Source of the DNA: a virus
Lineage: Duplodnaviria; Caudoviricetes
Length of the DNA stretch: 63,993 nt
Reading direction: 5' to 3' (one strand)
Virus record (IMG/VR): IMGVR_UViG_3300020432_000008
Location: 1 to 63,993 of that record
Below, piece by piece: positions 2,990 to 34,370 of the stretch. Below the pieces are notes generated by a model. That model worked only from the letters and a program-made list of their open reading frames with translations. It made no database searches and was not told the DNA's origin. The position numbers and the translations under genes are program-made. Numbering within the stretch: position 1 is the stretch's first letter; each line of letters opens with the position of its first letter.

Positions 2990-3134
2990 GATTTTCTCCT
3001 TTTGTTGTTTTTAATCATTTTATTGAATCGTTTTGATTCTGATGGACTCATGCCCGCAAAGTAATTGAGTAAATTATCGTCATATAGAGCGAATAATTCA
3101 TCAAGTGATTCAGTTCCGTTTAATTCTTGTTTCA

Positions 3135-3353
3135 TTATAAGCACTCTGATGGTGGTAAACCGATTGATGCAATAGCATTGTCAAGTGCATCAAAATCAAG
3201 GTCAGGATCATCAAAATCCACGCCTGCAGCGTGATCTACTCCCCACTCGAGCACTTCATCACAAAAATCTGAAAAATTCTTGCATACCCATGCAACATTT
3301 TCAAAGTTCTCAACTTCTTTGATTCTGTTGATTAGTCTCTCTGTTTTGGTCAT
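3135..3353 (-). CDS. small acidic hypothetical protein
   Basis: first gene after cassette at 3368-3446. Confidence 0.75.
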   Translation of the reverse strand: MTKTERLINRIKEVENFENVAWVCKNFSDFCDEVLEWGVDHAAGVDFDDPDLDFDALDNAIASIGLPPSECL

Positions 3354-23767: not shown

Positions 23768-23977
23768 TTATAACTCTAGGTTGTATTCAGCAATCATACC
23801 AAACATCTTACTCTGTATATGTTCTAGATAGGATTTATTGACTGGCGGTATGTCATCAAATTTATCAAGATACTCGGTGATTGTGTGGTGAAGTATTCTC
23901 ACCTCTTCAATCCCCATTATTGCTTCGCAATGCCAGTCTCCATCTTGAAACTGCTGGGGTTCGTATCTATCCTCCAT
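23768..23977 (-). CDS. hypothetical protein
   Basis: GAGGA RBS, operon context. Confidence 0.7.
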   Translation of the reverse strand: MEDRYEPQQFQDGDWHCEAIMGIEEVRILHHTITEYLDKFDDIPPVNKSYLEHIQSKMFGMIAEYNLEL

Positions 23978-26900
23978 TTTTCAGTTCCTCAATCTCATCT
24001 TTAAGTTCTTTGACAGCCTCTATGAGTAGAGGTACAAGTTTGTCGTATTGTACTGTCATGTATCCTTTACCTACAGCAGCTGGTTTAACAGCCTCAGGTA
24101 ATACTTCTTTAACCTGTTGTGCAGATACACCAGCATACCTTGTTTCAGTATCAAATCCTAGTTCACCAGCAGTTTCATTGAATGAATATGTAAATCCACT
24201 TAACTTACATACCTTAGCAATAGCACCATCAATCTGTTCTAGACTTGTTTTCAACCTCATGTCAGATACGAAGGCAGTAACATCTCCAGTGGTATTGAAG
24301 TTTCCAGTTTGATTGATGTCAGCAGTAACTTCAACTGAATTGTTATCTGCATCTAATTTTAATGCTCCTGACGTAGTATCAATCTTGTTATCTTTGATTC
24401 TTACATTGTCAGTTCTGAACACACCATTACATACAAGATCATTGTTAAATGTACCTGTGCTAGCGTTACAATCGAAGTCTGATGAGGCAGTAATTGAATT
24501 TACAGTCAGTCTAGTTCCATTGAATGTAAGATTAGCTGACGATGTGGTGCTGTTGTTTGAATTATTGTAAGGAACTCTACCACTAGGGATTTGAATGTTA
24601 GAGGCAAGTGTGGAAGTTGCAGCATTACCAGCAAAATTAGTTCCAGTTGCGGCAGTAAATGTACCTGTAACCTCAAGGTTGTTGATTTCGTTATTACCAC
24701 CAATAGTCGCATTATTACCTGTGATCGCAGTAGGGAAAGCACCTGTACCGCCTTGGAATAATGTCGCAGTGATAACATTGACCTTTGTACTACCATTGGA
24801 GTCTCTGGCAACAATAGAAGAACCGCTTGTCCAGTTGGTATCTTTAGTTGTCTTACCATCAAGTAAGTCAGCGTTCAAGTTTACACACTTGGCACTAGAT
24901 GATGTCTTGATAGGTGGAACAGTTGTTGCAGTTGATTCAAACTGGAATGATTTAATCTGTCCAGCAGAACCAGCATCAATAGTCATGTTACCACCATTAC
25001 CAGCACTCAATGCTGTAATGATACCAACGTTTGCACGAATGGTTGGGGCAGTAAGTCCATTACTGCCTTGTGGCATGTTGATTCTCTCTATCGTTGCAGC
25101 AAAACCAACAATACAAGTGTAGATACCAGCGTTAGCAAAGATAGTTAATTGTTCTGCCTCATTACCTGGCGATGCAGGGTACTTACTACCAATCTGTCTG
25201 GTAGTCATAGCATCAGAGTCTACATCATTAGAGAAGTATGCGTCAGGACCTATGAGGTCATCAGTAAATGTGATGTCTGTAGACGTAAGTTGAGCAATGT
25301 TTGCAAGTTCAATATCTGCGTTACCACCACCAGCAGAAGGAACTGTTAGATTAGTAATGGTTGCGTTTGTGACTGTCTCATTGGCAATCGTAGCACTGTT
25401 TGTTACTTGTAAGTTAGTAACAATACCTGTAAATACTCTATTTTCATTGACATATTGTGTTGTAACATGAGATAGAGTTGTAATACCAATATCAGCATAC
25501 AGTCCGTTAGTTACAACACCGACTGTAACGTGTAGGTCAGTAACGAAACCAACCTTTGCGTATAACTGATTTGATGCCTCAAGAATACCAAATGAACCGT
25601 TGGAAGCATTAACAAATGTACCATTGAATGTACCACCTGTACTTTCAAGGTTTCCAACTTTAAGTGTACCAGTGAATGTACTTACACCAGCGAATGTGGA
25701 CTTCATAGGTCCTTCAACCACTATCTGTGATGCTGGTTTGAATGTTACATAAGTACCAACAGTCTCTATGTTATACAGTCTGGAAGTACCATTCTCATGT
25801 ACCTGTGTGTAGTAACCATGATCTTCCCAAGGGATTCCATCATAGGATATACCACCTGTAGTGTTGTATCCCCAGAAGTTAGCGTTCTGCTTAATTACTA
25901 GAGTATCATAAGAGACACCTTTGAATGTCTGGTTAGCCTGAAATGTAACCATACCAGATACAAATAGGTCTTTTATCTTGGCAACACCATTGACCTCAAG
26001 AGCATCTTGGAAAGCAAAGTTTTGTGTGGATTGTCCAATACCAATCTGATCAAACTTAGCGAACTGTCTGTCTCTCTCCTGTGATATGACACCAAATCTT
26101 CTCCATTCACCCTCTGCAAAAATATGTCCTAAGTATCCACCAGGCGCAGGCACACCAACAAATGATATGTCACCTGATCTAGCAGCACTTGTAGGAGTAG
26201 AGATACCAACTGTTATGATCTTACCCTGTGGGGCATCTCCTCTAAGTGAGAAGTTTACAGTTTCAATACCTTCTTCAGATGTGTTTGTTAGTTTCTCAGT
26301 GAAGTTGACAGGACCATAGAACTGTGATGTTCTATTGTTGTTGTCTCCACCCTCAACTGTAAGTGACTCTCTAATTAATACCTCATCAAATACACCTGAT
26401 GCTCTCTTGATTGTTTCTGCCTCAGCATCGTCACCAACATAGGTGAACACTGGAGCTTCGAGAACTTCCTCTTCACCAGTGATAGATGATAACTTCTTAT
26501 ATCCTGTAAAGAAGTCTCCTGAGTCGTTCATACCAGTATAAACAACTGTACCACCATCTAGCTCTTTCTTCTGTGCAGTCAGTGATTCAGTATCAGATAG
26601 AACTCTGTCCTGTTTCTGTGGTAATGATGTGGAGTAGTTTCCTGATCCATAACCAAGATATTCAAACGTATGACCAGAGGCACGAAGGATCGAAGGTCTG
26701 CGTAATTCCATAGGAAGAACCTTGATCTTCTTAATCGTAGTTCCTGTGATTGCAGGCGATGCCAGAGTACCAAACTGACCTCTAAGAATGTTATTAATAT
26801 TATCAGAGGTGAATCTTACAACTTCACCATTGATTATACAATAGTCTCCTCTTCTAAATCCATCATTAGATGTAAGAGTGATATTTGTATCTGTAGATGT

Positions 26901-29900
26901 TAATGGAGCATTGATTGTGGTGGATATACCAGTATAGAAGTATGAACCTCTACCAGCCAAATTATTCTCACCAGCACTCAATGACTTACCATTGGCAGAT
27001 ATACCATTACCAAATAGTCTAGTATTGGTTGTTAGATATGATGTATCAATACCAGCAGTGATAATACCAACATTGAAAGTAATACTTCTAAGTGGTAGAT
27101 CTTCCTCTACACCATCAACTACAAGTGTTCTATCATCAAAGAGTGGGTTCTTAGTTCCTTGAATTACGAAACCATTTCCAGCCACAAGAGAGTGGTTTCC
27201 GTCCGTTCTAATTGTAGTAAGTCCAGTTGCACCTGTTACGTCAATATAAGTTACACCAACACCAATGTTTGCTAAGTGATATGTTGGAACTCTTCTATCA
27301 TCTCTATCTTTAAAGTATGGTTCAAGATTTCTAGCAGTTCCTATCTCAACTGAAATAGATTTAGATGTAGGAATATCTACAATCTTGAATGTGCCATTTA
27401 GTTTTGGATCTTCAAAACCAGTTAAGTTTAATCCATCTCCTAAATGAGAGAATATAGATGTTACTGATACTACACCAGCAACACTAGGAGCACCAGCTGG
27501 GAATGATGATACTGTCATGGTGTTACCTATACCATAACCACAACCACCATCAATTAAGTCAACATCTGTAATAGTACCAGCAGCAGATACAGTAATCTTA
27601 GCAGCGGCATTTCTACCAATCAGTGCATTATTTTCCAGATCCGCAGCATATATGACTGTGGCGATTCCTGATCCGTTATTATATCCAGCGCCAGGATTGA
27701 TAAGTGAGACTGACTTAACTGGGTTGAAATTGTGTTCAACATCAGTAAACAAGGTAACAGTGGTACTACCAGTACCAGTGATGACCGCACCAGTAGCAGC
27801 GAAACCAACTGACTGTCCTTGCATGAAGTAACCAAGAGATTCTTTGGTGATTGATTTCTTCTTATCACTTGTTATAACATCACCAATGATAGATGCACTA
27901 GCATGAGTGATAGCGGGTTCTGGATCTGAGTCGTAGTTGTCCCTATCTTGTTGTGGATATAAGTTTCTAACGTCCTGAGAGAAGGACTTCATAGATACAC
28001 CAAATCCAAGATCCTTATCTAGTGGGACTGATGAACATACTAAGATGACATTGTAAACACCATCTTGTCCAGATGTGCCAGGCACATGAGGTCTGTTCTC
28101 TTGAACCCTGTAAACTGCAAAACTATCTACAGCCTTTGATCTCTGAACTGTAGGTAGTGCTTCAATCTGTTGTTGTGTAGTTCTCTGGTTGACTTGGTTT
28201 AAGAATAAGCCTGGATCTGTGTTGATACCAGTTACAGTGAATTGTTTTGTACTTAGAACATCTGTAATTGGGTGTTCACCATTATATCCTAGTTTTTGTA
28301 CTGATGTGCTATTGTTTACGGAAGATACGTTTCTAATAGTTACAGTATCTCCTTTTACTAATCTATGTGGTTCTTCTGTAGTAAAGGTAAGAGTATTGGA
28401 ATTATATGTAGCGTTCTTAATGATCTTGACGTTCTTAAGTTGAGTTGGATTACTCAAGTCTGCACTCAAGAATGATGCACTACCTACACCAACTGTCTTA
28501 GATTCCTGTAGAATGAAACCAGGCTTCGGAGCACGAGCATTGGTGTGTTCTTTTGGTATAACATATCTTGCCCTGTAAACTCTATCAAGTAAACCTCTGT
28601 TATCTACTCTTCTCTTTAAGAATGTTGTACCTGTTTCTTCTCCAATAATACTTACACCAATAGTGTTGATAGCAGGGAATATTGTGTTAGATGATAGGCT
28701 AGAGGAGGCAGTTAAGTACCAACCACCAACTACATTCTGAACATTATTAATAGTGTATGTGGTCTCATCATACTGCATTGGGTGGCCTGGATCGCCAGGA
28801 GTCTTATCCGATACAGTAGATCTGATAGTTAATTTACCACCACCATTTGATATACCTGTGATGGGTCTACGAGCAACAGCATCGTTAAATGTAGATGCCA
28901 ATTGTATCCTATCTGCAGCCAGTGTACCACCAGAAATCGCAAAATATACCTTGTCATTTATGATACCAGCAGGAGTTTCACCAGTATTACTAAATACCCT
29001 TACTTTCTCTCCATTCACTAATTGATGATTAGTTTTAAGAGTGAATACGTTTGAAATAATATTGTTTACACCAGAGTTTCTAATTACTTCATACTGTTTT
29101 ACTGATGATGTTCCAATACCACTCGGCACTTGCATGAAGATAGGTGCTTCATAAGTTTCTTGTACAGCCTGACCTGATAGAGTATTAACTAAACTTAGGA
29201 ATAACTTATCATTTTGTCTTGCACCAACCTTAAATGAGTCAATCTCATGTGGAGGAACTATTTCCTCATTATTATATCCAAAGAGATATAATCTCTCAGT
29301 AACACCAACACCAATCGTTTTTCTAGTATCAATGGTCAACCATGATACTGTGGAGTCCTCTCTTACAATCTCTCTTGGTGGTATGATATGTGTGATGTAA
29401 CCTACATCATCTCTATCAAATGACTCTGGACGGAAACCTGTAGCCTCAAGAGCAGTCTGTCCAAAGTTAGAGTTAGAGTTGGTGATTGATGCGTCACCGC
29501 CTCGTTCTGCATGGAAGTGTCTAGCGTATGCAATAGCGAAAACAGACACCAACTGGATAACAGAATTATTCCTAGTCCTCATGTGTGAGGTTTCATAATT
29601 CGGTTTGTATATCGCCCTTGAGTTAGAGTGTAGTGGTTTCTCTGACTCTGCTACTGTTGTTGTGTCATTGAAGATCGCAGTGCTAGGATTATATAAGATG
29701 AAGGCGTTGTCGTCTTTCTGAATTGAAATACCAGTAAACTGAGCACAAACCATAGATTTGAAACCAGTTGCCTTGTCTCCATCACAATCCAATCCATTCA
29801 TACCAAACACTGAACGGAGTGATACGTTAAAGATATATGGAGAAGCAGATCCAACAGTATCAGACTCAACAACAATACTGGAATTTTGTATTTCCTGTGC

Positions 29901-30977
29901 TGTTGGGAGTGCATTAGCAGGGATATTAGGAGTCTGGAATGTGAACTGAACAGGACTCAATATCTCATCTACAAGGAATGAACCATTGTAGGAGTTGATT
30001 GCAGTTGTAATACCAGCGATTAATACAGGAGTGTCCTTGAATAATCCATGTGCCTTATTAGAGGTGACTGTAATAGTTGCAGTAGGAGTGTTACCATCAC
30101 CAGCCTTGATAGATGTAACACCAACTGGGTCTGATTGTAAGTCTCCAACAATTCTAAATTCATCTACGTTGGGTTCAAAGTCATCAAATGTTGGGTAATC
30201 ACCAACTGGTCTACCAGAAGCATCTCCATATGCCTGTGCCACCTTGAAGTAGAACATATCAAGGTCAGTCAATCCAGTGTCTGTACCATCAATTAAAACA
30301 TTGTTTATACCATCAGCGTAGGTGAATGTCGCTAATTTATGGTGAGAGTATGAGGGAGTTCTTGTATTACTATCGTAGTCATAGTATGCAGTTTTGGTTA
30401 TGTCTGCATCAAATATGGTGAAAGCAGTAAAGTAACAAGTACCTGTAACCCTAAGAACACCACCATATTCCATGGCATCATTAGCTGGATCAGGAACATA
30501 TAGTGGTCTTAACTTGGTTTTACGAAGATCTAAACCAATAATAGATGTACCACGAGGCATGATAGCACCACCTTCGGTACTATTATACTTGTATAGTTCG
30601 TTATTAGGGTCTAATACATCAAAATTACTTTCTGTAGTAAACTGAGTTAATGTTGTTGTTTGATATCCAGCGTTCTTTCTGCACTTAAATTCTGCATTAC
30701 CATTATTATTTGTTACTGTAAATCCAGGCCTGTTGTCAATATAGTGTACGCCAGGATATGCTAGAATAGTAGTTCTGTCAATCTTATCATTGTTCTTTCC
30801 TGTCTGATATGAAAATCTTGCAGCCTCAATCAATGCCCTTTGAATAGTCTTGAAGGGTCTTGTCTGAGAGTTACCTCTATTTTCTATACTATCTGTTGCA
30901 TCAAAGTCACTGGGATTAACATAGAGAATATTTCCCTCAGCGTTCTTTAGAAAGTTTTCTAATCTTGATAGAGGCAT
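23967..30977 (-). CDS. large virion structural/tail fibre protein with C-terminal peptidase S74 intramolecular chaperone
   Basis: MPLSRLENFLKN start recalled from cyanophage fibres; beta-rich repeats; SDMRLK...GVSAQ...YDKLVPLLIEAVKEL; CTAAATA upstream. Confidence 0.85.
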   Translation of the reverse strand: MPLSRLENFLKNAEGNILYVNPSDFDATDSIENRGNSQTRPFKTIQRALIEAARFSYQTGKNNDKIDRTTILAYPGVHYIDNRPGFTVTNNNGNAEFKCRKNAGYQTTTLTQFTTESNFDVLDPNNELYKYNSTEGGAIMPRGTSIIGLDLRKTKLRPLYVPDPANDAMEYGGVLRVTGTCYFTAFTIFDADITKTAYYDYDSNTRTPSYSHHKLATFTYADGINNVLIDGTDTGLTDLDMFYFKVAQAYGDASGRPVGDYPTFDDFEPNVDEFRIVGDLQSDPVGVTSIKAGDGNTPTATITVTSNKAHGLFKDTPVLIAGITTAINSYNGSFLVDEILSPVQFTFQTPNIPANALPTAQEIQNSSIVVESDTVGSASPYIFNVSLRSVFGMNGLDCDGDKATGFKSMVCAQFTGISIQKDDNAFILYNPSTAIFNDTTTVAESEKPLHSNSRAIYKPNYETSHMRTRNNSVIQLVSVFAIAYARHFHAERGGDASITNSNSNFGQTALEATGFRPESFDRDDVGYITHIIPPREIVREDSTVSWLTIDTRKTIGVGVTERLYLFGYNNEEIVPPHEIDSFKVGARQNDKLFLSLVNTLSGQAVQETYEAPIFMQVPSGIGTSSVKQYEVIRNSGVNNIISNVFTLKTNHQLVNGEKVRVFSNTGETPAGIINDKVYFAISGGTLAADRIQLASTFNDAVARRPITGISNGGGKLTIRSTVSDKTPGDPGHPMQYDETTYTINNVQNVVGGWYLTASSSLSSNTIFPAINTIGVSIIGEETGTTFLKRRVDNRGLLDRVYRARYVIPKEHTNARAPKPGFILQESKTVGVGSASFLSADLSNPTQLKNVKIIKNATYNSNTLTFTTEEPHRLVKGDTVTIRNVSSVNNSTSVQKLGYNGEHPITDVLSTKQFTVTGINTDPGLFLNQVNQRTTQQQIEALPTVQRSKAVDSFAVYRVQENRPHVPGTSGQDGVYNVILVCSSVPLDKDLGFGVSMKSFSQDVRNLYPQQDRDNYDSDPEPAITHASASIIGDVITSDKKKSITKESLGYFMQGQSVGFAATGAVITGTGSTTVTLFTDVEHNFNPVKSVSLINPGAGYNNGSGIATVIYAADLENNALIGRNAAAKITVSAAGTITDVDLIDGGCGYGIGNTMTVSSFPAGAPSVAGVVSVTSIFSHLGDGLNLTGFEDPKLNGTFKIVDIPTSKSISVEIGTARNLEPYFKDRDDRRVPTYHLANIGVGVTYIDVTGATGLTTIRTDGNHSLVAGNGFVIQGTKNPLFDDRTLVVDGVEEDLPLRSITFNVGIITAGIDTSYLTTNTRLFGNGISANGKSLSAGENNLAGRGSYFYTGISTTINAPLTSTDTNITLTSNDGFRRGDYCIINGEVVRFTSDNINNILRGQFGTLASPAITGTTIKKIKVLPMELRRPSILRASGHTFEYLGYGSGNYSTSLPQKQDRVLSDTESLTAQKKELDGGTVVYTGMNDSGDFFTGYKKLSSITGEEEVLEAPVFTYVGDDAEAETIKRASGVFDEVLIRESLTVEGGDNNNRTSQFYGPVNFTEKLTNTSEEGIETVNFSLRGDAPQGKIITVGISTPTSAARSGDISFVGVPAPGGYLGHIFAEGEWRRFGVISQERDRQFAKFDQIGIGQSTQNFAFQDALEVNGVAKIKDLFVSGMVTFQANQTFKGVSYDTLVIKQNANFWGYNTTGGISYDGIPWEDHGYYTQVHENGTSRLYNIETVGTYVTFKPASQIVVEGPMKSTFAGVSTFTGTLKVGNLESTGGTFNGTFVNASNGSFGILEASNQLYAKVGFVTDLHVTVGVVTNGLYADIGITTLSHVTTQYVNENRVFTGIVTNLQVTNSATIANETVTNATITNLTVPSAGGGNADIELANIAQLTSTDITFTDDLIGPDAYFSNDVDSDAMTTRQIGSKYPASPGNEAEQLTIFANAGIYTCIVGFAATIERINMPQGSNGLTAPTIRANVGIITALSAGNGGNMTIDAGSAGQIKSFQFESTATTVPPIKTSSSAKCVNLNADLLDGKTTKDTNWTSGSSIVARDSNGSTKVNVITATLFQGGTGAFPTAITGNNATIGGNNEINNLEVTGTFTAATGTNFAGNAATSTLASNIQIPSGRVPYNNSNNSTTSSANLTFNGTRLTVNSITASSDFDCNASTGTFNNDLVCNGVFRTDNVRIKDNKIDTTSGALKLDADNNSVEVTADINQTGNFNTTGDVTAFVSDMRLKTSLEQIDGAIAKVCKLSGFTYSFNETAGELGFDTETRYAGVSAQQVKEVLPEAVKPAAVGKGYMTVQYDKLVPLLIEAVKELKDEIEELKNGG

Positions 30978-31722: not shown

Positions 31723-31903
31723 CTTTGTTTCTTTCTTCCACTAAATGTTCAACTTCTGAGGCAACTTTATCCATTACCTCTCTTACGTCAGTTCCTGATC
31801 CAGAGGTATGATAGTAGTCTTGTCCTTTTGGAGCGTAATGTCTGGTGTGGAGTGTCCAATGCCACTGCTTTACACCTTTAGAATACCAAAATTGTAAACG
31901 CAT
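31715..31903 (-). CDS. hypothetical protein
   Basis: ORF track. Confidence 0.65.
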   Translation of the reverse strand: MRLQFWYSKGVKQWHWTLHTRHYAPKGQDYYHTSGSGTDVREVMDKVASEVEHLVEERNKDV

Positions 31904-31922
31904 AAAGTTTTAATTTATATAT

Positions 31923-31941
31923 GAAAGGGGGCAGAGCCCCC
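31923..31941 (-). terminator. terminal hairpin of tmRNA
   Basis: GGGGGCTCTGCCCCC-TTTC. Confidence 0.6.
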
Positions 31942-32215
31942 TATGGTCACTTGGGTAACAAGGAGTAACCAATCCCCGATTGCCCCTTAGGCAGTGACGA
32001 GTTCGTCAGTGCGGGCAAATTCTCTCGTAAGAATACGAGAGAACGCTACGATGTTGTTCGCAGCAGTGTCAGATGATTTTGCATCTGTGGTTTGCTCTCC
32101 GAGCAGGTTTTCAGTCATGCTCCTTGTACCCTGTCGAAACCATTGCACCCCCTAGCTTATGGAGGTGAGGGGAGTCGAACCCCTGTCCAAAATATAGGTT
32201 GCACCACCTACATGT
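31923..32215 (-). ncRNA. ssrA: two-piece (circularly permuted) tmRNA
   Basis: acceptor piece first: GGAC-AGGGG-TTCGACT-CCCCT-CACCTCC-A ending 32160; 7-nt spacer; coding piece starts GGGGGTG-CAATGGTTTCGAC at 32152; G3:U70 pair; tag frame 32061-31987 ANNIVAFSRILTREFARTDELVTA*; outer ends approximate. Confidence 0.92.
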
Positions 32216-32237
32216 CTTTTTGAGTCATACATCAGGA

Positions 32238-32831
32238 CTATACAATCCATTGTATCCAAGAATATCTAACCCCTTTTGTAACTGGAGTGACTTCATGTGG
32301 AAACAAATACAGTGCTGGAAATACTAATACACTTCCCTTCTTTATGTTGACAGTGTGTTCTTCCCAAAATATAAAATCACCGCCTTCAAAGTCATCATTC
32401 AATACACCTACCACACTTGTGACAGGTATTCCTCTAAATTGTCCTTGAAAGAGAGAATGAATGTGATCGTAGTGAGGACTAAGATAATCGCCAACAGCAT
32501 ACTTATTGAATTTTATACCAGAGCTGGCTTCCCAGAATGAACCACCACCGCCAGATCCAACACTATAATAATTATATTTTTCGTGGAAGGCATGATGCAA
32601 CTCATCATTTATATGTGGTTGTATCATAGATGCCGCCTCTGGGCAATCTACAGTTGACTTCATCTTTGAATCTTTATCAAGATCAACATGTTCATTAGTT
32701 GAACCCTGATACCACATGAAATCATCCCATTCACGAGAATCCAAGTAAGAAACTATCTCATCACATTCCTGATGAGATAACAAATCATACTCAAATATAT
32801 GATCTTTAAGATTCGGGTACTTTAGGACCAT
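32238..32831 (-). CDS. 2OG-Fe(II) oxygenase (prolyl-4-hydroxylase-like)
   Basis: HYD, LNDDFEGG, HEVTPVTKGVRYS. Confidence 0.9.
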   Translation of the reverse strand: MVLKYPNLKDHIFEYDLLSHQECDEIVSYLDSREWDDFMWYQGSTNEHVDLDKDSKMKSTVDCPEAASMIQPHINDELHHAFHEKYNYYSVGSGGGGSFWEASSGIKFNKYAVGDYLSPHYDHIHSLFQGQFRGIPVTSVVGVLNDDFEGGDFIFWEEHTVNIKKGSVLVFPALYLFPHEVTPVTKGVRYSWIQWIV

Positions 32832-32955
32832 CCTGTAAAACCTGTTTACCAGTTTGTTTAGCAATATATGCCGCTAACTCTGGAGTTTCTTCCCATTCCC
32901 ATATCTGATTATGTTGGGGATTTTTTTTCTCAATCGTGTGTGTGCGTTTTACCAT
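32806..32955 (-). CDS. small hypothetical protein
   Basis: MVKRTHTIEKKNPQH...; GAGG RBS. Confidence 0.6.
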   Translation of the reverse strand: MVKRTHTIEKKNPQHNQIWEWEETPELAAYIAKQTGKQVLQDGPKVPES

Positions 32956-33217
32956 TTTCAACCTCCTCTGATAATAGTGCGATTTCATGCTCGAGTCCAA
33001 CGATTCTAAGTTCTGCATCATTAGCAGATCTCTCAAGGGCTCTTACTTTAGTACTCAATTTTGCAATCTCTTTACCGAAGGCATCAATGTTTTGGAGTAA
33101 TAGATTGTTTCCAAAACTCTGTGGATGGCCTTTTTCAGCGTAGGCAGTATCTTCTACTTCCTCGCATTTCTGGAGGTACTCCTCCTTTGTCATTCTGTTT
33201 TTCTTTGTGTCAGTCAT
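32930..33217 (-). CDS. coiled-coil hypothetical protein
   Basis: ORF track, ATGA coupling. Confidence 0.7.
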   Translation of the reverse strand: MTDTKKNRMTKEEYLQKCEEVEDTAYAEKGHPQSFGNNLLLQNIDAFGKEIAKLSTKVRALERSANDAELRIVGLEHEIALLSEEVENGKTHTHD

Positions 33218-33741
33218 GGGTATTCCATGTAAAGGTTTCCAGATATTGTAGATCCCTCATTGCCTGAATTAACCATGTGCATGAGGAATGATGGGAATAT
33301 AATAATACTCCCAGGCTCAAGATTAGGCTTATAGTCTAACGGAAAATAAGGATTTGTGCAACCTATATGATTCTGTATATTATGTATTGAAGGATTAAAG
33401 AAGGCTGTCCTTGATGTTACATCAACATAAATTACAAAACTCCACTGACTTTTAGGGTGTATGTGAGCATCCTGATAGTGATGTTTTTCATAGACATTTT
33501 TCCATATATGCCCGAACCTTGCGTTCTCTCCCATCAAGTTTGCTGGGTACAAGTTCCTTTCTATAACTTCAGATAGATATCTCCATATATCCTCTGGAAT
33601 CAGTTCTTGTTTTTGTGATGAGAAAGTAGAAGGAACACCAGAATCCCATGTTGGTTCTAGTGGAGCTCTAGGAATGATATCAAATTTAGTTACATCAACC
33701 TTGTCTTCAAAGATAGGTATTCCAAAGATTTCTTTTTTCAT
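33214..33741 (-). CDS. 2OG-Fe(II) oxygenase (TIGR02466-like)
   Basis: QDAHIH, SFVIY, FPSFLMH. Confidence 0.85.
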   Translation of the reverse strand: MKKEIFGIPIFEDKVDVTKFDIIPRAPLEPTWDSGVPSTFSSQKQELIPEDIWRYLSEVIERNLYPANLMGENARFGHIWKNVYEKHHYQDAHIHPKSQWSFVIYVDVTSRTAFFNPSIHNIQNHIGCTNPYFPLDYKPNLEPGSIIIFPSFLMHMVNSGNEGSTISGNLYMEYP

Positions 33742-34370
33742 TTTGAAGGTAGAGGTACTTTTCTCATTGTTTTATATACCAGACTAGATCTTAGTCCACG
33801 ATACTTTTCATTTGGTGGCATACCATGATGCCATATATTTCCTTTGAAGAATATAACTCTGCCTGGGGCAGGGTCTACCCCTTCCCACTTATCATTTAAC
33901 TTATACATCAACTGACCTCCCCACTCTGGATTCCACTCTTTGTTTATATAATAACAGAAACTGAGGCCATTGTCACATGTACAATCCTGATGTGGTGTTG
34001 TGTTATGTATCCACTGTTGTCCATTTATCATTATCTCTCCCAGTTCTACTTCAAATGGTAGAGTATTCATAACAGCACTGTAGATCATTTTGAAGGCACT
34101 GTCCTGTGCAATGTCACTCCTGTCTGGAGGAAATATCTGTTGTTTCAAGGCTGGCGCCTCTTCCCATGTAGGATCTGCACCCACATCTCTACCATCTTCA
34201 GCATATCCGCTGGTGTGTCCCCAGAACCAGTTGTATCCTGTCATCACCATATCATGAACATGGTGAACAAACCAAGGCGGAAAGATGTAATCTACAACAT
34301 ATATCTCGTCTTTCGATAAGTCATACTTAGACCAATCTAAAAATTCTTGTCGGCAATCAATGTAAATCAT
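33738..34370 (-). CDS. 2OG-Fe(II) oxygenase
   Basis: PHQD, YINKEWNPEWGG, WHHG, LRSSL. Confidence 0.88.
   Translation of the reverse strand: MIYIDCRQEFLDWSKYDLSKDEIYVVDYIFPPWFVHHVHDMVMTGYNWFWGHTSGYAEDGRDVGADPTWEEAPALKQQIFPPDRSDIAQDSAFKMIYSAVMNTLPFEVELGEIMINGQQWIHNTTPHQDCTCDNGLSFCYYINKEWNPEWGGQLMYKLNDKWEGVDPAPGRVIFFKGNIWHHGMPPNEKYRGLRSSLVYKTMRKVPLPSK

Follow-up and report, generated by a model that had tools for sequence, protein, structure and literature searches.

A circularly permuted tmRNA gene of a diversified cyanophage lineage, with a divergent tag and a phage-only hairpin

Background

Two-piece transfer-messenger RNAs (tmRNAs) of phages have been catalogued by Buchholz et al. (2022; PMC9004378), whose ARAGORN search of 18,146 phage genomes yielded, according to the available part of that article, 53 two-piece tmRNAs, 50 of them marine or aquatic. 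Its Table S1 gives as 'Permuted' those of S-SSM7, S-SSM6a, S-CAM1, S-CAM3, S-CRM01 and S-CBWM1, and for S-SSM7 and S-SSM6a the available part contains a table row only, without anatomy or tag analysis. The gene described here is a new example of these already catalogued cyanophage permuted tmRNAs. It lies at approximately 31927-32232, on the minus strand, of the IMG/VR virus record IMGVR_UViG_3300020432_000008 (Duplodnaviria; Caudoviricetes), the whole of which (63,993 nucleotides, estimated to be 27% complete) was analysed and is called the window below. All coordinates are given on the plus strand, the RNA being the reverse complement, and the elements of the RNA were read by hand from the sequence.

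Among phages of other hosts, the OM43 phage Melnitz and the pelagimyophages resemble the window in that a marine T4-like myovirus carries a permuted tmRNA gene with no phage SmpB reported in the available part of PMC9004378, but their tmRNAs are of the alphaproteobacterial type, and in Melnitz a glutamine riboswitch adjoins the gene. For Melnitz, the same source considers either the maintenance of hijacked machinery or the tagging of host proteins for recycling. The tmRNAs of mycobacteriophages (the Bxz1 group), Bacillus phage G and phage DS6A (Hudson et al. 2014; PMC4131195, also available in part) are likewise reliant on host SmpB, but those of the mycobacteriophages and phage G are in one piece, in unpermuted order and from other hosts, and that of DS6A consists of the tRNA-like domain only, without a tag frame, whereas the gene of the window keeps its tag frame. 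The lists in the available part of PMC4131195 hold mycobacteriophages and Bacillus phage G only. In the S-SSM7 genome paper (PMC3037559) the tmRNA appears in a reference title only. Nawrocki et al. (2025; PMC11915505) counted 79 bacteriophage tmRNA sequences; the phage names were not found in one text file of the supplement, which leaves undecided whether the cyanophage tmRNA family is listed there. A literature search whose coverage did not extend to subscription journals found no paper dissecting the tag or the hairpin of a cyanophage tmRNA beyond the table row.

Results and discussion

Identity of the gene

ARAGORN called a permuted tmRNA at 31896-32249 (-), the sole RNA gene that it called in the window, and the locus matches two Rfam models over their full length: RF01851 (cyano_tmRNA, model positions 1-288) at 31928-32232 (-), with 122.2 bits and an E-value of 1.3e-32, and RF04321 (tmRNA_permuted) at 31987-32208 (-), with 87.2 bits. 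Both scores are above the gathering cut-offs (70 and 47, respectively) and are well beyond chance. A scan of the whole window at gathering thresholds gave these two tmRNA matches only, and no riboswitch. On the RNA strand, the 3' acceptor half and the T-arm (32160-32184) are upstream of the 5' acceptor half (32146-32152), which is the permuted order.

An earlier note, made from the sequence alone, had proposed that the phage carries a circularly permuted tmRNA, picocyanobacterial in type, and had named ARAGORN, the Rfam cyano_tmRNA model and a nucleotide search against cyanophages as ways to check it. ARAGORN and both Rfam permuted-tmRNA models agree with the permuted gene, the RF01851 score agrees with the picocyanobacterial type, and the nucleotide search found relatives 92% identical in S-SSM7 and S-SSM6a, described below. 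The T-arm, acceptor strands, spacer of 7 nucleotides (nt), G3:U70 pair, lack of an encoded CCA, cyanobacterial-type tag start and terminal hairpin that the note described are all present in the sequence. Its interval, 31923-32215, identified the right gene but stopped approximately 17 nt short of the 5' limit of the Rfam match, and the minus strand was unstated.

Selection on fold and frame

Relatives were gathered from IMG/VR with a pattern for the start of the tag, which replaced an earlier 22-nt T-arm/acceptor pattern that was too general (118 loci, mostly unrelated tmRNAs matching over just 22-37 nt). The phage-type tag start is present in 80 contigs, of which 73 received an ARAGORN tmRNA call, with 33 distinct tags. 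Two alignments were used: A2, made with MAFFT, holds the window and 60 distinct phage copies (61 sequences), and A1 holds phage copies together with five hosts and the sequences of a shorter type (L134, L139 and L149) described below. The structure, composed of the Rfam helices, the pseudoknot and three hairpins read from the alignment, was written onto the window row; with this derivation from one aligned sequence, which somewhat favours the pair counts, 84.2% of cells pair in A2, versus 43-52% after a shift of the 3' partners by 1-3 columns, and 28 of the 75 pairs have changed on both sides, versus 7-12 in the shifted controls. The observed covariation score was reached in none of 500 shuffles.

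The tag frame is open in 61/61 phage copies, in six length classes (21, 23, 28, 29, 31 and 32 codons), and each of the other two frames contains a stop in all 61. The open frame and the compensatory pairing together indicate that the fold and the frame are both under selection, and that the gene is no relic. Judged from the same sequences, the lineage is diversified and widespread and circulates among T4-like cyanomyoviruses.

Relation to other phages and to the host gene

The tmRNA stretch matched 16 records, 3 of which covered at least 80% of the query. The closest, at 92% identity across 97% of the length, are Cyanophage S-SSM6a and Synechococcus phage S-SSM7 (both Kyanoviridae, Lipsvirus); weaker matches include Sf-FS3, S-CAM1, S-CAM3 and Marine virus AG-345-P14. 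S-SSM7 and S-SSM6a share the ARAGORN tag of the window and also its gene neighbourhood, with a 2OG-Fe(II) oxygenase gene before the tmRNA and a small open reading frame (ORF), an ORF of 233 amino acids and a tail-fibre gene after it. The window is nevertheless a separate contig with approximately 8% sequence difference, including a compensatory change at acceptor pair 5:68 (G5:C68 in the window, A5:U68 in S-SSM7) and a spacer of 7 nt versus approximately 5 nt in S-SSM7, according to the acceptor-stem register read in A1.

The tmRNAs of marine picocyanobacteria (Prochlorococcus, Synechococcus and Cyanobium) are alike in their permuted order, tRNA-like domain, long helix, hairpin after the long helix, 3' pseudoknot, terminal hairpin and tag core ANNIV.FSR, but differ from the window in having a spacer of approximately 15-20 nt rather than 7 nt, and the window has a degenerate leader hairpin and an extra 18-nt hairpin. 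In a sample of 81 picocyanobacterial-family genomes, RF01851 scored above its cut-off in 68, with primary copies at 277-326 bits, compared with 122 bits in the window. A pattern scan of the genome collection with the spacer set at 15 nt, a length appropriate to hosts rather than phages, found 8 loci. A quick maximum-likelihood tree, unrooted and with 101 rows, separates the 37 host rows completely from the 61 phage rows; the branch between them has a length of 0.66 changes per column and a Shimodaira-Hasegawa-like approximate likelihood ratio (SH-aLRT) support of 100. The three L134-type rows sit on a long branch, and no weight is placed on them. These comparisons indicate a cyanobacterial-type gene of an old, diversified, phage-only lineage and not a recent host capture. 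The earlier note had spoken of a captured 'host-type' ssrA; this wording does not survive the separate, diverged lineage of the phage copies and their gap in score, and it is further opposed by the phage-only hairpin and the longer tag with a different ending.

Two groups of sequences were noticed beside this lineage. Three picocyanobacterial genomes contain a second, weaker cyano_tmRNA match (168, 94 and 66 bits; G017:C8:15487-15781, G010:C11:308429-308665 and G040:C1:926930-927148), in which ARAGORN found no intact tmRNA in two cases and a doubtful one in the third; these are probable fragments, and may have been left by island integration. The phage loci L134, L139 and L149 have a distinct, shorter type of tmRNA with the tag ANKIVSFRRTAVAV, which in A1 appears to have no 3' pseudoknot and to continue directly into sequence that by eye resembles a tRNA.

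The tag, the phage-only hairpin and the resume codon

The tag reading frame called by ARAGORN, AKSSDTAANNIVAFSRILTREFARTDELVTA, occupies 31987-32082, with the stop codon UAA at 31989-31987. The phage tags have a core, ANNIVAFSR, in common with the host type but are longer, being lengthened at both ends: the tag of the window ends in VTA and is longer than the host tag ANNIVRFSRQAAPVAA. In hosts the tag hardly varies: it is ANNIV(R/S)FSRQ(A/T)APVAA, with 16 residues, and ends in VAA in 38/38 host loci (35 genomes). In the phage copies, VAA-type endings number 17 of 61 (TVAA in 13, LVAA in 4), and the other 44 are LATA (13), LVTA (12), LATV (9), LVAV (4), FATA (2), LALA (2), MVPA (1) and LVLA (1); the last residue is alanine in 48 and valine in 13. 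A 24-nt in-frame insert in the tag (ILTREFAR), found only in the S-SSM7-like clade, forms a hairpin of its own, CUCUCGUA-UUCU-UACGAGAG, at 32022-32041 (helix 7; 78% paired where present).

The phage-only hairpin, CAGAUG-CAAAAU-CAUCUG (18 nt; 32070-32087; helix 6), was recognized from the alignment and is absent from all five hosts in A1. Compensatory changes at two stem pairs, from AGAU...AUCU to AUCU...AGAU, exchange its two strands in 18 of the 61 phage copies. The resume codon chosen by ARAGORN, GCA (32082-32080), lies in the closing pair and loop of this hairpin, whereas the start codons homologous to those of the hosts are GCU (32064-32062) and GCG (32061-32059), at the host-like tag start (A)ANNIV that was read by hand at 32064-32050. 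The tag would have 31 residues from the upstream GCA, or 24-25 from the host-homologous codons. A U-A at positions -5/-4 helps to set the frame in E. coli tmRNA. The five hosts in A1 have UA at these positions before the resume codon, and the host-homologous GCU and GCG of the window are without this context. At the upstream codon, all 36 unique upstream variants have A at position -4, with C or U at position -5; the codon itself varies among GCA, GCT and GCC only, all of which encode alanine; and it stands a constant 18 nt, in frame, from the host-like codons. Several of these points favour the upstream GCA as the resume codon, although the choice made by ARAGORN is heuristic and not independent of the context rules, and the host-homologous codons remain candidates.

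Dependence on host factors, expression and proposed function

SmpB (PF01668) was not found in the window, as the earlier note had stated, nor in the complete genomes of S-SSM7 and S-SSM6a (0/2), in a search that was positive in 10 of 14 control genomes. The locus is not a self-sufficient module of ssrA and smpB, the SmpB gene being absent from the window and from both complete relatives, and without a phage SmpB any function must use the host protein.

Fourteen listed runs on record as RNA hold part of the stretch, of which four runs from four studies were compared. Contigs from two of these four marine metatranscriptome runs (two studies) cover the gene: one of 368 nt in run X1 (31836-32203, 3 differences) and one of 232 nt in run X2 (31999-32230, 0 differences). 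Run X7 gave no contig over the gene and run X8 one that touches its 5' edge only (32224-32336), and both are uninformative on absence. The metatranscriptome contigs are a weak hint of expression.

Taken together, the locus is almost certainly a functional two-piece tmRNA gene of a T4-like cyanomyovirus lineage, probably serving ribosome rescue with host factors. The steps proposed here are modelled on what is established for two-piece tmRNAs. Transcription of the gene would accompany or immediately follow that of the upstream oxygenase gene, probably within a longer RNA, from which host tRNA-processing enzymes would excise the 7-nt spacer: RNase P would act at G1 (32152), and the 3' end would be trimmed back to the discriminator A (32160). 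The acceptor piece and the coding piece would thus be released, kept paired by the long helix; the host CCA-adding enzyme would supply CCA, and the host alanyl-tRNA synthetase would charge the RNA by way of G3:U70. Host SmpB would then bring the charged RNA to ribosomes stalled on broken mRNAs, where translation would resume on the tag frame, adding the phage-specific tag and freeing the ribosome. The likely benefit to the phage would be that ribosomes are kept free during infection, an idea close to the one that PMC9004378 puts forward for Melnitz.

Several observations weigh against this assignment. The VTA ending here, and the retention of VAA in just 17/61 phage copies, mean that tagged proteins may escape host-like degradation, and the resume codon is unsettled between GCA and the host-homologous codons. 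The gap in RF01851 score between the window and the hosts is accompanied by the loss of most of the host leader hairpin. The contigs from RNA libraries carry no ends, strand or level and may include DNA, and one of them crosses the spacer, as would be expected of a precursor or of DNA. Between 31500 and 33000, a promoter scan gave 4 promoter-like sites, compared with 4.6 expected by chance, and a terminator scan gave a single terminator-like site, inside the upstream oxygenase gene, and none at the tmRNA. The literature search described above, with the same coverage, found no experiment on any cyanophage tmRNA.

The tag also prompts other views of what the RNA does. The phage tmRNA might re-route or blunt host trans-translation by competing for SmpB and stalled ribosomes, its tag being poorly or differently read by proteases, so that the products of rescue, or phage proteins translated from cleaved mRNAs, would be left intact or directed to another fate. 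The uniform VAA of the 38 host loci against the different endings of 44 of the 61 phage copies suggests this, as does the lengthening of the tag at both ends, and the available part of PMC4131195 reports that a tmRNA consisting only of the tRNA-like domain, like that of mycobacteriophage DS6A, inhibits host tmRNA. Such re-routing nevertheless seems quite unlikely: the VAA ending is kept by the 17 copies that include the S-CAM1/S-CAM3 type, the final residue is still alanine in 48 of the 61 copies and valine in 13, and the host-like core ANNIVAFSR is retained. A tentative extension, which is somewhat less improbable although still doubtful, is that the phage tmRNA lineage has been rebuilt to alter trans-translation, such that ribosomes are freed while the tagged products escape host proteolysis or meet another fate; it is put forward because the covarying phage-only hairpin presents the resume codon in its loop and the tag is lengthened and mostly does not end in VAA. 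If this were true, the phage would take over a host quality-control pathway, beyond topping it up.

A functionless gene that came in alongside tRNA genes, as a passenger or decaying relic, might be suspected from its low score on the host model, the degenerate leader hairpin of the S-SSM7-like clade and the lack of an own promoter or terminator above chance, but this is very improbable when every major helix has been kept by compensatory changes, G3:U70 is invariant in 61/61 copies, the frame has stayed open in all of them despite many in-frame insertions and deletions, and the lineage has diversified over 80 viral contigs. Still further from credible is the reading in the GenBank records of S-SSM7 (SSSM7_025) and S-SSM6a (CYVG_00208), namely a gene for a small protein. 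An ORF of 53 amino acids with a GTG start at 32148 does exist at 31987-32148 (-), and both records call a coding sequence (CDS). This candidate was rejected: the ORF has no Pfam match and lies wholly inside both RNA-model matches, its upstream portion runs over the acceptor stem and long helix, in which the changes are compensatory at the RNA level, and the start differs between the two records (3043 versus 3100). Least plausible of all is that a temperate phage has kept a tmRNA fragment as a mimic of an integration site; the available part of PMC9004378 does mention prophages with pieces of tmRNA, and integration at ssrA, but the gene of the window is complete and no 3' fragment, and its closest relatives are T4-like Kyanoviridae.

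Parts of the RNA

All of the parts that follow are on the minus strand and are given from 5' to 3' along the RNA. Just 5' of the acceptor piece is a weak leader hairpin (AUGAC...G.CAU; 32212-32228), seen in the sequence and in both alignments, which is degenerate here, whereas hosts and other phages have a stronger hairpin at the same place; the host leader hairpin occupies positions 17-34 of the RF01851 model, which are marked as largely deleted in the window match. The long helix that joins the two pieces follows the Rfam structure line at 32188-32208 for its 5' strand, in the acceptor piece, and Rfam and the pair counts at 32113-32133 for its 3' strand, in the coding piece; it comprises helices 1 and 2, which are 93% and 88% paired in the 61 sequences, with 9 of 17 pairs changed on both sides. 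The T-arm, AGGGG-UUCGACU-CCCCU (32168-32184; helix 3), is 100% paired, with 2 pairs changed on both sides. The 3' acceptor strand CACCUCC (32161-32167; helix 4) is followed by the discriminator A (32160) and then by UAA, and the 5' acceptor strand GGGGGUG (32146-32152) begins with G1 at 32152, the presumed RNase P site. The acceptor helix has 7 base pairs and is 100% paired in the 61 sequences, and its third pair (U:G) is the alanine identity pair G3:U70 in the window and in all 61 phage copies.

Further along the coding piece, GGUUUCGAC was read by hand at approximately 32133-32141, and the host-like hairpin UGCUC-GGA-GAGCA of the Rfam structure is at 32093-32105 (helix 5; 91% paired). Near the end of the tag, a hairpin found in the alignments, UGACG-AACU-CGUCA (31995-32008; helix 8), shows two-sided changes in 2 of its 4 main pairs. 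The 3' pseudoknot (31945-31986) was assembled from the Rfam stem and the alignments: its stem is AUCGGGGA/UCCUUGUU, and its loop GGUUAC pairs with a downstream GUGACC (helix 12). The latter pairing covaries in A1, with 4 of 6 pairs changed on both sides, and in A2 this second stem is paired in 49% of cells, the loop being one column off in many MAFFT rows. The terminal hairpin GGGGGC-UCU-GCCCCC (31927-31941; helix 13) corresponds to RF01851 model positions 271-288 and is 82.5% paired.

The spacer and its nested tRNAs

The spacer of the window, UAAGCUA (7 nt; 32153-32159), would be removed on maturation. In 10 unique sequences of A2 the same slot holds a complete tRNA, which is tRNA-Tyr in L206, L217 and L221 and tRNA-Asn in L210, L211, L218, L070, L238, L256 and L258, and in L247 the spacer is repeat-rich and longer than 200 nt. 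A whole tRNA in the slot implies that the flanks of the slot are cut as tRNA ends, so that the tRNA-bearing spacers fit excision by tRNA-processing enzymes. Nawrocki et al. (2025; PMC11915505) described a single tRNA-Ala inside the intervening sequence of a tmRNA, which they termed a unique feature.

Genomic setting and annotation

The tmRNA gene is situated within a run of minus-strand genes. Upstream are three consecutive genes of the 2OG-Fe(II) oxygenase superfamily (32238-32864, 33214-33741 and 33738-34370, all on the minus strand; PF13640, PF13759), the nearest of which ends at 32238, with the tmRNA directly after its stop codon on the same strand. Downstream are ORFs of 62, 233 and 2336 amino acids, of which the second has a weak match to DUF6445 and the third (23967-30977, minus strand) has a counterpart in S-SSM7 annotated as a tail fibre protein. 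In the interval from the terminal hairpin to the start codon (ATG, 31903) of the following ORF is UAUAAAUU (31912-31919, minus strand), which we take to resemble the T4-type late promoter motif, as a candidate only. In other cyanophages (Sf-FS3, S-CAM1, S-CAM3 and, in A2, many loci from IMG/VR) the tmRNA belongs to a tRNA cluster, often with a tRNA-Thr immediately upstream and a tRNA-Arg or tRNA-Asn immediately downstream; ARAGORN found no tRNA gene in the whole 64-kb window.

A tmRNA annotation was absent at the locus in all six phage records examined. In locus positions, S-SSM7 and S-SSM6a have instead a 'hypothetical protein' CDS over the tmRNA, at 3043-3261 (SSSM7_025) and 3100-3261 (CYVG_00208), as might be anticipated from the remark in the earlier note that the gene is invisible to ORF callers. 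Both CDSs end at 3261, which is the final base of the ARAGORN tag in those loci, and a CDS that ends where the tag ends is the tag frame extended upstream into the RNA; SSSM7_025 and CYVG_00208 therefore look like miscalls, and the 53-residue ORF of the window is the matching frame.

Conclusions

As phage-borne tmRNAs show, the genes that some viruses carry include, besides tRNAs, a part of the ribosome-rescue system. The bare occurrence of one more adds little, the nearest relatives of this gene being already in a survey table, and the consequence for annotation is that hypothetical proteins stand where the tmRNA of S-SSM7 and S-SSM6a lies. What is worth keeping is the comparative picture, of a phage-only lineage that is clearly under selection for both fold and frame, with a tag divergent in length and ending from that of the hosts and a covarying hairpin on its probable resume codon.

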